Of a stretch of 45,889 bases of DNA, positions 26,928 through 41,755 are shown piece by piece. The stretch spans positions 1-45,889 of the forward strand of contig JAJYWL010000011.1 of assembly GCA_021791545.1 (NCBI GenBank). Reading direction: 5' to 3'. The notes beneath the pieces were generated by a model. The model ran no database searches. It was not told where the DNA came from and saw only the letters and a list, made by a program, of their open reading frames with translations. Every line of letters starts with the position of its first letter. Within the stretch, counting starts at the first letter, position 1. The translations under genes were made by a program, and so were the position numbers. The DNA comes from a bacterium. Lineage in GTDB: Bacteria > Patescibacteriota > Microgenomatia > Levybacterales > UBA12049.

Positions 26928-27485
26928 ATGATTTCAGTAACTGATTTAAGAGCAGGAACACTTTTCGAAGACCAAGGAAACATTTTCCAGGTTCTTTCCT
27001 ATGAGCATATTAAGATGGGGAGGGGAAGTGCCAATATTAAGGTAAAGGTCAAAAATATAAGGAGTGGCTCAACAACAGATAAATCCTTCATAAACGGAGC
27101 TAGGGTTAATGAAGTTTCAGTATTAAAGAAAGATCTTCAGTATCTCTACAAGGATGACGTAGTAGCTTTCTTTATGAATCCAAAGTCTTTTGAACAGGTA
27201 GAAGTTCCTCTAAAGATAATTCAGAATGAAGAACCATATCTTAAAGACGGAGAAGAATATTCAATAAGTTTCCTTGGAGAAGAACCTCTTTCTATAAATC
27301 TTCCTCCAAAGATGGAATTTGTCGTCGCGGAAGCAGCTCCTGGAGTAAAGGGAAATTCTGCTACTAATATATTTAAGGACGCAATTTTGGAAAACGGAAT
27401 GAAGACTAAAGTGCCTCTTTTTGTTAACACGGGTGACAAAATCCGCGTGGATACAAGAACAGGTGCTTATACCGAAAAAGCATAA
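26928..27485 (+). CDS. efp: Elongation factor P
   Basis: HIKMGRGSA loop, PGVKGNSA, VPLFV...VDTRTGAY. Confidence 0.95.
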   Translation: MISVTDLRAGTLFEDQGNIFQVLSYEHIKMGRGSANIKVKVKNIRSGSTTDKSFINGARVNEVSVLKKDLQYLYKDDVVAFFMNPKSFEQVEVPLKIIQNEEPYLKDGEEYSISFLGEEPLSINLPPKMEFVVAEAAPGVKGNSATNIFKDAILENGMKTKVPLFVNTGDKIRVDTRTGAYTEKA

Positions 27486-34330: not shown

Positions 34331-34440
34331 ATGATTTCTAAATTTCAATTTTTAGCCTCAACTTAGCTTCATAATCCTTTAAAAAAAACGACATAATTCA
34401 TTGGCAGGGAAGAGGAGAGGGTCATTTTAGCTTCAAATGA

Positions 34441-34496
34441 TATAGTTTGATATATGTTATAGTTTGATATAGTTATAGGCCTATAATAATTATAGG
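34441..34496. repeat. AT-rich direct repeats and palindromes
   Basis: TATAGTTTGATATA at 34441 and 34458; TTATAGGCCTATAA 34473-34486; CCTATAATAATTATAGG 34480-34496. Confidence 0.7.
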
Positions 34497-34515
34497 ATGT
34501 TTTTCAAATTCAAAA

Positions 34516-34524
34516 TGTGGATAA
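34516..34524 (-). promoter_or_regulatory. Perfect DnaA box (TTATCCACA)
   Basis: TGTGGATAA on the plus strand; single copy in this gap. Confidence 0.4.
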
Positions 34525-34825
34525 CTTATATTAGATTTCACGGAAAATCGGTAATAGTTTTCACGGAGTAGTAGGAAGCCTCTCTAGCCTAGGTATTTGA
34601 GCATAGATTCAAGCATACGAAAAAAATACGAATGTCTCTTTCTCATGTTGCCAGGGCTCCTCCTTAGGGAAGGGCTGCAAGATTTGTTATTAATAAAAAT
34701 TTGTTGTAGACCTCTAGAAGAGGGAGTAAAATTTCTATTTATATATTTAATTGTTCTTATATTTCCTCTCTCGGTGTCTAAGATAAAAAATGACATATTT
34801 GAGCGCTGGGAAAGAGAGAGTGATT

Positions 34826-34853
34826 ATGTCGTACAATAATACTTTTACGACAC
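34826..34853. other. Candidate dif (Xer recombination) site ATGTCGTACAA-TAATAC-TTTTACGACAC
   Basis: 11-6-11 layout with arms 9/11 inverted-identical and an AA-N6-TT core; lies between converging GGGNAGGG octamers. Confidence 0.6.
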
Positions 34854-35109
34854 GACTCATGGCTAGATCCGGGGGGAAGTGGTCTTTTTTGTCCAATTCT
34901 TTATTACATATTTGTTGAATTTTTTTAATGTTTATATTTCCTCTCCTATATATTGCTCTATTTTTCTCCAGGTCCAGAATTCAAGTCCCTCCCCCACTAT
35001 AGGTTATAAATATTTTTATAATTTGAGGCTAATTGAAGCTAATTTTTGTAATTTTTTATGGCTATTGCACACTCTTAGCCTCGAGATAGTGGTATAATCT
35101 ATCTCATCT

Positions 35110-35914
35110 ATGTCTAATTCACTTCCAATAGGTATATTTGATTCAGGCATTGGAGGTCTCACGGTAACTAAGGCCATTATGGAGCTTTTGCCTTCAGAAA
35201 ATTTAATTTACTTAGGAGACACTGCGAGAGTTCCTTATGGAATAAGAGACAAAAAAAACAATTACGGAATTTGCACTGGAGATTACAAATTTTCTTTTAA
35301 AAAAGAAAGTAAAAGTTCTGGTTGTTGCATGTAATACAATTTCTGCAACATCTTTAAATGAGATTAAGAAAGTTTCTAATGTTCCGGTAATTGATGTTAT
35401 CGATCCGACAGTCTGTAAGGCTCTAGAATCGTCTAAAAATAAAAAGATCGGAGTAATTGGTACAAGAGCAACAGTAGATAGTAAGGCTTATGATTTAGAG
35501 TTTGATAAAAAAGGTGCTAAGGTTACTTTTTCAAAAGCTTGTCCATTATTTGTTCCTTTAGCAGAAGAAGGTTTTATAAAACACAAAGCTTCTGAAATTA
35601 TTGCAAAAGAATACCTTTCAATTTTTAGAAAAAAAGTAGATGTTTTAATCTTGGGATGTACCCATTATCCTGTTCTTAAAGAATTAATACAGAAATCTGT
35701 AGGATCTGATATAGCATTGATCGACTCCGCAAATCCCACCGCAGAGGCTTTAAAGAATCTTTTAGAAGAAAAAAATTTATTAAATCCTTCTAAGTTTAAA
35801 GGTAAATTAAAATTTTATGTTACAGATGCCCCAGATCGTGTATATAAAATAGCGAACATATTTTTTAATGGAAATTTCCCTGGTAATTTAGAAAGAATTG
35901 ATCTTTCTAAATAA
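35110..35914 (+). pseudogene. murI: Glutamate racemase interrupted by a +1 frameshift in an A8 run (35251-35258)
   Basis: FDSGIGG...PYG in the first frame; VACNT and LGCTHYP in the shifted frame; deleting one A restores one ORF. Confidence 0.85.
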
Positions 35915-35923
35915 TCTTCTTTT

Positions 35924-36544
35924 TTAGTTTTGTTTTCCGCTTTCATCGTGGCATTTGTAGGCTTTCTTATCACACATATTTTGACATGTAGGATCGTTTT
36001 TGAAGGTAGCCGGACATTGACTCTGGGCGGGATTAGAATAGGCTATGCATGAGCCGCTGGGTGAACAAGCATAATATTTAACGCATCCTTCATCAAGTGA
36101 TACATTTGTGCTGGAAGTCCCATAATTGAAAGCGCACTGATTGCCACAGCCAAATCTACATCCGACATCATCTATGCTTTTATCTTTAGTATTTTCCAGA
36201 TTAGCCAGTAGTTTAAACCAGGTATGGCAGGAGTTATTATCTGTTTCGTATTCATAATCTTTTCCGCTGGGATTACAAGGAATTTTAGAAAAATAAGTGA
36301 CATTATTCTTTTCAAAAGCTTGACCACAAGCCGGTAAAGAATCAGGATAACATCCTTTGTTATCATCATTGTAAGCTGTAAGAGCATTCCTAATCTGTAT
36401 AAGATCTTCCTTTACTTTCGCATCTCTGGCTTTAGATATTTGAGGACCTATCGTTATAAAGGTAACAAAAGCAAGTATGGACATTATTCCGAGGGCTATG
36501 AGGAGTTCTATTAAAAGAAAGCCTTTTAAATTTCGCTTCTTCAT
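35924..36544 (-). CDS. Type IV pilin / pseudopilin (GspG-like) with Cys-rich C-terminus
   Basis: Class III signal KG|FLLIELLIALGI; KARDAKVKEDL; 14 Cys. Confidence 0.85.
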   Translation of the reverse strand: MKKRNLKGFLLIELLIALGIMSILAFVTFITIGPQISKARDAKVKEDLIQIRNALTAYNDDNKGCYPDSLPACGQAFEKNNVTYFSKIPCNPSGKDYEYETDNNSCHTWFKLLANLENTKDKSIDDVGCRFGCGNQCAFNYGTSSTNVSLDEGCVKYYACSPSGSCIAYSNPAQSQCPATFKNDPTCQNMCDKKAYKCHDESGKQN

Positions 36545-39160: not shown

Positions 39161-39242
39161 ATTTAGTATGCCTAATTTGATGCTCTTGTGTCAACCTGCT
39201 TGAGCTTGACAAACTTCTCCGCTGTGTCGCACAATTAAATTG

Positions 39243-40217
39243 ATGGACGAGAATAATACGCAGGGGAAAGAAGAAAAACCAAAGCTAAGAAATGAACTTT
39301 CCGGACTTATTGATCAATTTCTCGAATATTTGGAAATTGAGAAAAACTGCAGTAAGCTGACAATACGGGATTATAGGCATTATCTTGAGATATTCAACGA
39401 GTGGTTCTCCTCTACTCTTCCCGATAAATCATATGAAGATCTGGATCTTGCAACCGTTAGAAGATATAGGGTTTATCTTTCAAATAGAGTTGACGAGCAG
39501 GATATTCCTATTAAGCGTGTAACCCAAAATTATTATGTAATTGCCTTAAGATCATTTCTCCGTTTTCTTATAAAAAACGATTTTAAGACTCTTGAGCCTT
39601 CAAAAATTGATCTTCCTAAGACCGAAAGCAGAAGCCTTAAATTTCTGGAAAAAGAACAGGTAGATAGGCTCGTCACAAGTGTGGATACATCAACCGAAGA
39701 AGGAATCAGGGACAGGACAATTCTGGAGCTTCTCTTCTCCACCGGTCTTCGTGTATCCGAGCTTTGCAAATTAAATCATGCCCAGATTAATTTAGAGAGG
39801 CGTGAGTTCGGAGTCATCGGAAAAGGAGGAAGAGCAAGGGTCGTTTTTGTATCTGATAGGGCTGCCGATTGGATCAAAAGATATATGGATAAAAGAGAAG
39901 ATGACTATAAGCCTTTATTCATCAGATACTCTGGGTCTAAAAGTGAAGAGAATAACGGAGAGAAGATGAGACTTACTCCAAGAAGTGTCGAAAGGATAGT
40001 TAAAAAGTACGTGAGAGCAGCGAAAATACCTGTAGATGCGACCGTACATACATTAAGACATAGCTTTGCTACGGATTTGCTTACCAACGGAGCCGATCTT
40101 CGCTCTGTCCAGGAAATGCTAGGTCACAAGAATATCGCCACTACTCAAATATATACTCATATTACAAATAAACAGCTTCACGACGTCCATAAGAACTTCC
40201 ATTCAGGAAATAAGTAG
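39243..40217 (+). CDS. xerC: XerC/XerD-family tyrosine recombinase
   Basis: SAM-like N-domain; TGLRVSEL, GKGGRAR, HTLRHSFAT, LGH, TTQIYT; C versus D assignment is uncertain. Confidence 0.88.
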   Translation: MDENNTQGKEEKPKLRNELSGLIDQFLEYLEIEKNCSKLTIRDYRHYLEIFNEWFSSTLPDKSYEDLDLATVRRYRVYLSNRVDEQDIPIKRVTQNYYVIALRSFLRFLIKNDFKTLEPSKIDLPKTESRSLKFLEKEQVDRLVTSVDTSTEEGIRDRTILELLFSTGLRVSELCKLNHAQINLERREFGVIGKGGRARVVFVSDRAADWIKRYMDKREDDYKPLFIRYSGSKSEENNGEKMRLTPRSVERIVKKYVRAAKIPVDATVHTLRHSFATDLLTNGADLRSVQEMLGHKNIATTQIYTHITNKQLHDVHKNFHSGNK

Positions 40218-40341
40218 GCCTTTTTAGTAGCTTCCCTTTGCTTCGTATAAGGGTTAATTTACAAACTTATAGTGAAATTACTCCTTGCAGTGTCTTTTTT
40301 TGTCTGTTAAGATGCCAAACTTGTGTGCTGCCCGCACATTT

Positions 40342-40914
40342 ATGAGAAGAAAACCTTTTCGGAATATTTTATTAATATTAGCGGTAATTACTTTACTCTT
40401 CAATTCCTTTCAAATTGTTATTCCTCAAGCATCAGCCGATAACGGTGAATCTGCCGTACTTTCTAAAATGGGATCTTTCAATCCAAAATTAACCTCCGAT
40501 GTAAGCATGTATTATCCAATATATAAGGCCGTTGCAGATAAGTATGGAATAGATTGGTACCTTCTTTGGATCGTTCATGAGGCTGAGAGTGGAGCTTCGG
40601 ATTCTGTAAGAGCGTTTAACGGAGGAAGTGCTCCCTATTACGGAGCAATGCAAAGGAATGTTTACATCTGGTCTCAAAGTTATGTTAATACTGCAGCATC
40701 CGGTTTAGATTCTTTGGCTTCCCTTCCTCAAAGACATCCCGACGATTGGAGAGAAATAGCTGCTGCAGGACTTATGATAAGTACAAACATAAAGGATCAT
40801 TCATACTTAGGGCCTAATGGCTCCGTGCTCACTGCTCTTCTTCGGTATTCTGCAGCAGGACCTGCTTATCTTAGGTTCTATAAGTGGGAACAATACAAGC
40901 AAATCTTCGGTTGA
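40342..40914 (+). CDS. Secreted lysozyme-fold / lytic transglycosylase-like protein (start moved to MRRKPF)
   Basis: Signal peptide; YKAVADKYGIDWYLLWIVHEAES and YGAMQ. Confidence 0.65.
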   Translation: MRRKPFRNILLILAVITLLFNSFQIVIPQASADNGESAVLSKMGSFNPKLTSDVSMYYPIYKAVADKYGIDWYLLWIVHEAESGASDSVRAFNGGSAPYYGAMQRNVYIWSQSYVNTAASGLDSLASLPQRHPDDWREIAAAGLMISTNIKDHSYLGPNGSVLTALLRYSAAGPAYLRFYKWEQYKQIFG

Positions 40915-40978: not shown

Positions 40979-41755
40979 ATGAAAGAAAAACGAGATTTTA
41001 TTCTTATTGGTTCAGAGCTTGCATTTGCGGGTGCTCTTTTATTTACGGCTTCTCAAGTTGCCGGCAAATCTCCTACAAAAGAGCCGATAATTCCTGAAGA
41101 TGCATTCAAGCCTATGATCATGCCTTTGGAAACTGCACCTCCTACGCCGACTTTGGTTTTCGAATCCCCGATTATCTCTTCGGATTCTTCAGACACTTCA
41201 AATAAAAGACCAAGACAAGAAACCCAAGCTCTTTCTCCTACTGATTTAAAGCTGGAGACATATAGAAGTCAGCTTGATGACTTACTAATGCAGATGGAAA
41301 AAAGACCGGATGTTTTTGGGCCAAGACTGATTAAAGATATAACGATGTATTATCCGATGTATAAAGCAGTAGCCGATAAATATAATATTGACTGGAAGCT
41401 TTTATGGATAACTCATGAATATGAATCAGGTGCATCTAATAGCAAGAAAGCTTTCAACGGATCTACTTACCCTTACTTTGGAGGTATGCAAAGAAACGTA
41501 AATACTTGGTCTCAGTCATATGTTAACGGAGCTTTCAATGGTTTGGAATTTCTTAACGAATTACCCATGAGAAATAAGACAGATGCTATGGAAATAGCCG
41601 CAGCGGGAAAAACTCTTGCGGTAAATTATCATCATTATGAAGCAAGCGGAAATCAAAGAGCAATCTTTAATTCATTTAAACTCTACGTAGGTTCTTCTAG
41701 TATGGCTCAACTTCGCCTTGATAGATTGATGCTTTTTGCGGATGCTCTTTCCTAG
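40979..41755 (+). CDS. Paralogous lysozyme-fold / lytic transglycosylase-like protein
   Basis: YKAVADKYNIDWKLLWITHEYES, FGGMQRNV; clear similarity to the upstream gene. Confidence 0.65.
   Translation: MKEKRDFILIGSELAFAGALLFTASQVAGKSPTKEPIIPEDAFKPMIMPLETAPPTPTLVFESPIISSDSSDTSNKRPRQETQALSPTDLKLETYRSQLDDLLMQMEKRPDVFGPRLIKDITMYYPMYKAVADKYNIDWKLLWITHEYESGASNSKKAFNGSTYPYFGGMQRNVNTWSQSYVNGAFNGLEFLNELPMRNKTDAMEIAAAGKTLAVNYHHYEASGNQRAIFNSFKLYVGSSSMAQLRLDRLMLFADALS

Follow-up and report, generated by a model that had tools for sequence, protein, structure and literature searches.

The window analyzed here, the whole of a 45,889-nucleotide contig (C3) from a genome (G000; 775 kb in 17 contigs, 96% complete) of a Levybacteria bacterium belonging to the candidate phyla radiation (CPR; Patescibacteria), contains a noncoding stretch of 779 nt (positions 34331 to 35109) located between an open reading frame (ORF) of 207 amino acids (aa) and murI. 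This stretch holds a 28-mer on the plus strand, ATGTCGTACAA-TAATAC-TTTTACGACAC (34826 to 34853), composed of a left arm (34826 to 34836), a 6-bp central region, TAATAC (34837 to 34842), and a right arm (34843 to 34853). An intact gene for an Xer-type tyrosine recombinase (xer; 39240 to 40217, plus strand, with the frame opening at TTG 39240 and an ATG at 39243) is present 4.4 kb away, as first noted. The original prediction took the 28-mer to be a dimer-resolution site at the replication terminus, a reading supported by GC skew, by the chromosome of a relative assembled as one contig (G024), by conservation, by FtsK, and by the intact nearby Xer. We consider it very probable that the 28-mer is the chromosomal dif site of this bacterium and acts with the linked Xer and FtsK; the dif reading is settled by comparison across genomes and not by features of the window alone.

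The 28-mer reads exactly as first given, and its 11-6-11 organization, with arms that are inverted-identical at 9 of 11 positions, corresponds to the generic layout of Xer/dif sites (about 28 to 31 bp, with inverted arms of ∼11 bp and a centre of 6 to 11 bp) as defined in PMC5357621. The 775-kb genome has a single match to it even when 7 mismatches are allowed, and arm-like half-sites (one mismatch) are scattered over the genome, with none near the core site. A 14-nt direct repeat, TTATATTTCCTCTC, flanks the site on the plus strand at 34757 to 34770 and 34932 to 34945, exact in both copies as had been claimed, and C/T-rich stretches are found at similar places to the left copy in relatives; the repeat alone is not above chance, with 3 matches at up to 2 mismatches against 1.34 expected.

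Conservation within the order was assessed in 41 genomes from three families, using a degenerate pattern in which the six central bases were left free. At up to 2 mismatches the pattern matches 34 of the 41 genomes, and in the main match of every genome the unspecified centre is TAATAC, with the same asymmetry (ACAA...TTTT). The same pattern written backwards, as a control, matched 5 of the 41 genomes, so not all 2-mismatch matches are real, and four extra matches in the order have neither the TAATAC centre nor the ACAA...TTTT asymmetry; this leaves one true TAATAC copy per relative, as in G000 itself. Four of the seven unmatched genomes have a slightly diverged copy upstream of xer, bringing the total to 38 of 41, and in the remaining three one copy is cut by the contig start, one genome has none within 7 kb, and one has only 700 nt. 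Across 53 distinct loci, 19 of the 28 columns show no variation and 52 loci share the TAATAC centre; the site is noncoding as well as conserved, with no conserved frame in 32 loci. Contigs from four other studies differ in the flanks and show zero differences within the 28-mer, and in one sample contigs of other organisms match over only ∼38 nt around the site and are divergent beyond it. The conserved, single-copy motif that was to be sought in relatives is thus present.

A related site is found well beyond the order. The pattern GTCGYACAA-N6-TTTTRCGAC, at up to 1 mismatch, occurs in 165 of 401 genomes sampled across the phylum (one of them, G194, an unpublished genome) versus 3 genomes with a match to the control. 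By hand count, the commonest phylum form (e.g., ATGTCGCACAATGTATCTTATGCGACAT) matches the E. coli dif sequence printed in PMC3025954 at 19 of 28 bases, including 5 of the 6 central ones, whereas the site in the window matches it at only 11 of 28. The order thus carries a diverged variant of a dif type that spans the CPR and whose two arms are both similar to the left arm of canonical dif.

The site is located at a shift point of GC skew. Cumulative skew on the contig reaches its maximum at 36063, 1.2 kb from the site, and the sole clear, strong minimum of the genome is on another contig (C10:84654), within dnaA (C10:84383 to 84865), in a region where near-consensus DnaA boxes cluster. In the one-contig relative (1.61 Mb, sampled as 40 windows, each of 20 kb), skew reaches its minimum at dnaA (1.25 Mb) and its maximum at 170 to 240 kb, with the site at 171,982, so that the skew maximum and the flip in polar words (see below) coincide with the site, as expected if skew inverts there. 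In ten relatives from the order (20-kb flanks) skew is greater to the left of the site than to the right in 10 of 10, with a change of sign in 8, and in twenty genomes from other families of the phylum (10-kb flanks), one of which lacks a right flank, it falls in 19 of the 19 that have one, also with a change of sign in 8; across both samples skew falls at the site in all 29 relatives with usable flanks. Skew alone places the terminus only roughly. In the one-contig relative, dnaA and the site divide the chromosome into very unequal replichores of about 0.53 Mb and 1.08 Mb, a division borne out by skew as well as by polar words.

Gene direction and short G-rich words are also polarized with respect to the site. 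Genes were originally described as mostly plus-strand to its left and minus-strand to its right; the former holds for the long ORFs, but the right side conforms only roughly, with 7 long ORFs on the minus strand and 3 on the plus strand in addition to a broken murI on the plus strand. Convergent words of the KOPS type (FtsK-orienting polar sequences) had been proposed from four GGGNAGGG octamers, at 27017 and 34667 on the plus strand and 34987 and 42866 on the minus strand, and there are indeed none elsewhere in the window. Four octamers alone are not above chance (2.94 expected, with at least 4 reached in 35 of 100 shuffles), but the polarity itself holds and flips at the site when flanks are read towards it, excluding 300 bp on each side, and words pointing towards and away are scored. 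In the order (11 genomes), the towards:away ratio is 88:7 for RGGGGAG and 32:1 for GGGNAGGG; in the phylum sample (20 genomes), it is 119:7 and 36:5, respectively. Of the occurrences of the background word GGGG, only 69% point towards the site. For RGGGGA, both sides point inwards in 8 of the 11 order genomes and 19 of the 20 phylum genomes. In the one-contig relative, the sum of RGGGGAG and GGGNAGGG (which can overlap), taken on the plus strand, is 38:1 over the arc leading from dnaA to the site and 4:36 over the remaining arc back to dnaA, and the windows of mixed polarity are exactly those containing the site and dnaA. RGGGGAG is 15:0 to the left of the site and 0:3 to the right of it in the window. 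The octamer is therefore polar as claimed, but RGGGGAG is better supported than GGGNAGGG alone, and the octamers at 34667 and 34987 sit in conserved flanking blocks. Another word, GAGAAGGG, which we take to be the recognition word of B. subtilis SpoIIIE, was considered and not adopted: its ratio is 24:1 on the skew-oriented G000 contigs, but the flanks of the site in relatives give no more than 9:3 and 12:4.

The genome codes for one FtsK, on contig C10, with alpha, motor, and gamma domains (FtsK_gamma, 92.9 bits), answering the call in the original prediction for an ftsK gene. The combination of a gamma-domain FtsK and words that converge and invert at the site argues for a role for FtsK here, and RGGGGAG, together with GGGNAGGG, is a candidate polar word that FtsK would read.

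The product of the linked xer gene contains Pfam Phage_integrase (4e-45) and SAM_1 domains, and its catalytic motifs (GLRVSEL, GKGGRAR, HTLRHSFAT, and TQIYTH, read by eye) are intact. Of the NCBIfam models, only XerA_Arch is passed (227.4 bits, with a cut-off of 220), with scores below the cut-offs for XerD (253.5 versus 329.6), XerC (246.9 versus 335.2), and XerS (128.4 versus 267). The closest structures by sequence are XerA of Pyrococcus (PDB 4a8e; E value, 3.9e-41) and XerD (1a0p; 5e-37), with XerH (5jjv; 1e-11) only distantly similar. Orthologues with 63 to 80% identity are present in 40 of the 41 order genomes, and xer and the site share a contig, 0.6 to 6.1 kb apart and with constant side and direction, in 31 of the 33 genomes in which both were located. 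The exceptions are G011, in which xer is 78 kb from the site on the same contig (C2), with no second site found upstream of its xer, and G019, in which both are at contig ends. Starting instead from xer loci with at least 1.3 kb upstream, 23 of 26 have the site, always upstream and in a single orientation; these contigs are partly identical to those of the genome sample, so the two sets are not independent. Two further genomes from this class show the linkage as well. The genes that separate xer from the site differ among genomes (in G000 there are four, on the opposite strand), whereas the left flank, with a YebC-family gene and a gene for a protein of ∼280 aa, is conserved. Directly after xer are two paralogous genes (40285 to 40914 and 40979 to 41755) without Pfam matches, the products of which each have a signal-like N terminus and a common block, YYP.YKAVADKY.IDW.LLWI.HE.ESGAS.

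Several observations weigh against reading the 28-mer as a dif site. As a bare palindrome it is not above chance: inverted repeats of the 11-6-11 type with 9 or more of 11 positions matching number 13 in the window, where simulations give 13.8, and 231 in the genome, of which 35 have an AA-N6-TT core; it is because the site is unique in the genome and conserved in other genomes that it rises above chance. The skew is noisy: of 30 relatives, only 16 show a true sign change at the site, and only 12 (4 of the 10 from the order, 8 of the 20 from the phylum) have their local cumulative maximum within 3 kb of it. To the right of the site the window extends for just 11 kb, with weak skew (−0.03), and with the genome in 17 contigs, two of which (C8 and C12) have weak turning points, a second skew turn is possible. 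Linkage to xer is confined to one class: in the 18 genomes from other classes, the 10 kb around the site contain no xer. Conservation extends beyond 28 bp into flanking blocks of fixed polarity, which is unusual for dif, and one of these blocks, 18 nt from the right arm, is G-rich and directed away from the site. The host organism is uncultured and the case is computational. Finally, there is a second conserved Xer-like tyrosine recombinase of 286 aa on contig C10, ∼30% identical to the first and present in most genomes of the order. Contigs C8 (38 kb) and C12 (87 kb) differ from the rest of the genome in having almost zero net GC skew with weak internal turning points, and RGGGGAG is 3:14 on C12; these contigs may be rearranged or foreign to the bin.

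The second recombinase bears on whether one protein or two would act at the site. A single homomeric Xer had been proposed, and a count of Xer paralogues suggested as a check; the count does not agree, with two tyrosine recombinases in the genome and not one. A site served by both, in the manner of XerC/XerD, with the linked Xer on one arm and the C10 recombinase on the other, is unlikely, although both proteins have the Xer-type domain layout, most genomes of the order have a second recombinase at ∼30% identity, and a fixed asymmetry (C at position 9 versus T at position 20, plus the asymmetric centre) is seen in 53 of 53 loci. Arms bound by two proteins, as with XerC and XerD, are expected to differ in sequence. 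Here the arms differ at 2 of 11 positions, and only at position 9 in the order consensus, while the outer arms are one word (TGTCGTA / TACGACA) that varies at the same positions on both sides. The second recombinase (172.9 bits for XerD and 172.1 for XerC) fails all equivalog cut-offs, neither protein reaches that of XerC or XerD, and the second gene is never near the site. In 2 of 5 genomes checked (G029, 97% complete, and G026, 94% complete), only the dif-linked recombinase was detected with Pfam. One protein acting on both arms is thus likely, and is favored because the arms are near-identical and vary at matching positions, the second recombinase fails the cut-offs, and Pfam misses it in 2 of 5 genomes; this part of the original prediction stands as the favored reading but is softened, since two tyrosine recombinases are present. 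By our own reading, the second recombinase (C10:36902 to 40375 region) has N at the expected first histidine of the HxxR motif, and its gene is flanked by those for a small coiled-coil membrane protein and, on the opposite strand, a P-loop ATPase.

The pair shares features with several described systems without conforming to any one of them. As in XerS/difSL of streptococci and lactococci (as outlined in PMC5357621), a recombinase gene and its site form a terminus module with one protein on both arms and FtsK present; difSL, however, is described there as 31 bp with an 11-bp centre and xerS immediately adjacent, in contrast to 28 bp, a 6-bp centre, and a distance of 0.6 to 6.1 kb here. By XerS model score, centre length, and gene distance it does not belong to this group. 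XerH/difH of Helicobacter and Campylobacter (PMC5357621 and PMC3325230) similarly combines a single recombinase, imperfect inverted arms, and an xer gene near the site, but the arm words are different, and the linked Xer is only distantly XerH-like. The archaeal XerA/dif system (PMC2958812; PDB 4a8e and 5hxy) provides the closest solved structure, the one cut-off that is passed, and an 11-6-11 site. The host here, in contrast, is a bacterium with a gamma-domain FtsK and polar words converging on the site. Archaea are not known to have FtsK. The XerC/XerD-dif systems of E. coli and B. subtilis (site sequences printed in PMC3025954) have a 28-bp, 11-6-11 site at a skew shift point, with FtsK and polar words, but here the arms are near-identical, the recombinases fall below the XerC and XerD cut-offs, and xer is linked to the site. 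XerL/dif of the Legionellales is also a lineage-specific single recombinase with a palindromic, noncoding, conserved site of ∼30 bp near the terminus (PMC9765430); the flanking genes vary there, whereas here the left flank and several noncoding blocks are conserved.

On the protein side, a "Cand" subgroup of Xer-related tyrosine recombinases from candidate phyla is already in print (PMC8138268), and the target site is not given in the portion of that text available to us. Sites of the dif type were predicted in 16 phyla in 2011 (PMC3025954), and the GRiD growth-rate paper relies on a database of older dif sequences. Full-text literature searches that paired dif with Patescibacteria, candidate phyla radiation, or Saccharibacteria turned up no account of a dif site in the CPR, in agreement with the initial suggestion that this dif type is undescribed for the lineage.

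If the 28-mer is a dif site, it would lie where the two replication forks meet, and when an odd number of crossovers has joined the sister chromosomes as a dimer, the linked Xer, encoded 4.4 kb to the right, would bind both 11-bp arms, two sites would synapse, and strand exchange, with cleavage predicted at the edges of the TAATAC centre, would restore monomers. FtsK would read the G-rich polar words from both replichores, and probably unites the two sites and triggers the reaction. CPR bacteria account for a considerable part of bacterial diversity, and almost nothing is known of how their chromosomes are replicated and segregated. A dif site recognizable from sequence would provide a terminus anchor in fragmented metagenome bins, for contig ordering and for growth rates derived from origin/terminus read depth, and the recombinase and site form a compact pair that is testable in vitro. 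The combination of near-symmetric arms and fixed asymmetric flanking motifs would also allow a direct test of the order of strand exchange by a single Xer.

The flanking motifs consist of several short blocks on both sides of the core. To the left, block 1, GGGAAGGGCT (34667 to 34676, plus strand), is a G-rich word that points at the site and holds the octamer at 34667; GGGGGAGNGG-type words are found ∼160 nt left of the site in relatives (read off the alignment, with no formal count). A second G-rich word, TGGGAAAGAG (34807 to 34816, plus strand), is 10 to 20 nt left of the left arm, and (T/A)GGGAAGC-type words occupy its position in relatives of the same family (likewise read from alignments without a count). 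To the right, block 3 (34871 to 34890, plus strand) starts 18 nt after the right arm and consists of GGGGGGAAGTGG and a T run after it. Allowing up to 2 mismatches, 25 of 53 loci have GGGAGAAGTGG on the same strand within 60 nt to the right, in 18 cases at offset 18, and 0 of 53 have it on the opposite strand. Block 4, CCTATAGTGGGGGAGGG (34987 to 35003, minus strand), holds the octamer at 34987 and combines a polar G-rich word directed towards the site with a TATAG(G/T) element. Its CCTACTATAGG motif (also written CCCCTACTATAGG, up to 2 mismatches) is 130 to 149 nt right of the site in 42 of 53 loci, and the opposite strand of CCCCTACTATAGG contains the polar word pointing at the site; in other places, too, the words TAGGGGA and TGGGGGAG show strong polarity in the direction of the site.

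Farther to the left is a single-copy cluster of motifs (34438 to 34632, plus strand), the order of which is conserved in relatives. It contains TGATATAGT at 34438 and 34465, a 17-bp palindrome, CCTATAATAATTATAGG (34480 to 34496), TGTGGATAA (34516 to 34524), TTTCACGG at 34536 and 34559, and AAAAATACGAA at 34622. Neither the palindrome nor the TTTCACRG pair recurs anywhere else in the genome. In 36 of 54 loci, TGTGGATAA, which we take to be a perfect DnaA-box 9-mer, is found in the 800 nt upstream in the orientation seen here, with no instance of the opposite orientation. The cluster and the flanking motifs look like protein-binding sites, and no RNA fold was found in the cluster by RNAalifold. 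We tentatively propose, as a doubtful extension of the dif reading, that the 28-mer is the central part of a longer conserved element, a polar "terminus module" of some 650 bp, in which block 3 would be a landing pad for FtsK-gamma that marks the arm activated first. Such a landing pad would give a homomeric Xer the strand-exchange order that XerC/XerD gets from two proteins, and the cluster, with its TATAGG palindrome, DnaA-box 9-mer, and two copies of TTTCACGG, would link the locus to replication status or fork arrest.

The blocks also invite a reading in which the 28-mer is the hairpin of a noncoding RNA, or a terminator, in a transcribed intergenic region of ∼650 nt. The large noncoding region (779 nt) with conserved blocks at fixed spacing and polarity, the TATAGT/TATAAT-like elements facing the site from both sides, and the T run after block 3 would all be in keeping with an RNA, but we regard it as very improbable. 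RNAalifold recovers the palindrome only, on either strand (−3.7 and −8.8 kcal/mol over ∼275 columns). In at least 23 of 53 loci, C faces A at positions 7 and 22 and the two do not pair, and in at least 16, T faces G at positions 2 and 27, so that some loci keep both pairs on neither strand; the invariant loop, or centre, together with the invariant C/T mismatch implies that sequence and not pairing is under selection. Rfam returned zero matches at the gathering score and two weak ones (E values up to 10) to microRNA families, and a terminator scan found none. RNase P RNA and transfer-messenger RNA are located elsewhere in the genome (C10). A known RNA family was also rejected, as the only Rfam match in the window at the gathering score is a tRNA-Leu and ARAGORN reports only tRNA. 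A 6S RNA was not found in the genome, promoter-like sites number 4 against 3.1 expected, and the listed public sequencing runs with this DNA include no RNA run.

Equally hard to sustain is a local function within the xer module, with the site as an operator of xer or as the attachment site or end of a mobile or invertible segment that carries it. The site and xer do move as a pair with fixed orientation, the intervening genes vary in the manner of an insertion hot spot, and the direct repeat flanks the site, but an element would need two ends and there is one copy per genome; four opposite-strand genes preclude an operator in G000, and no exact copy of the site is present in a collection of viral contigs. 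In the 18 genomes of other classes, where xer is absent within 10 kb, the site is still at the skew fall and the polar-word flip, and the likeness to canonical dif also speaks against a local function.

A Ter-like replication fork barrier, bound by another protein and not recombined, would suit the terminus position and the protein-binding-like motifs beside the site, including the DnaA-box 9-mer; a fork trap, however, needs opposed sites on both sides and the motif cluster is one-sided, while the 11-6-11 layout, the dif likeness, and the linked Xer all fit recombination. We regard such a barrier as very improbable. An origin in place of a terminus, considered for the DnaA-box 9-mer 310 nt to the left, was rejected, as it is C10 that carries dnaA, the DnaA-box cluster, and the minimum of skew, and gene directions are convergent at the site. 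A small protein encoded over the site by a 77-codon frame on the minus strand was likewise rejected, with no frame consistently long in 32 loci and a distance between block 3 and the site that varies from 21 to 23 nt (alignment reading).

Inverted tandem pairs of the 10-bp word TTAGCYTCAA at 34352 to 34371 and 35023 to 35042 bracket the whole noncoding module around the 28-mer, and GAGGCTAA, with 37 copies in the genome against about 17 expected by our own arithmetic, is near the module in several relatives. The adjoining murI gene (35110 to 35914; a glutamate racemase as read from its N terminus) is frameshifted after ∼47 codons. At 35251, contigs from three of the four other studies have one base fewer, and the extra base here is specific to this assembly or strain, or an assembly error.

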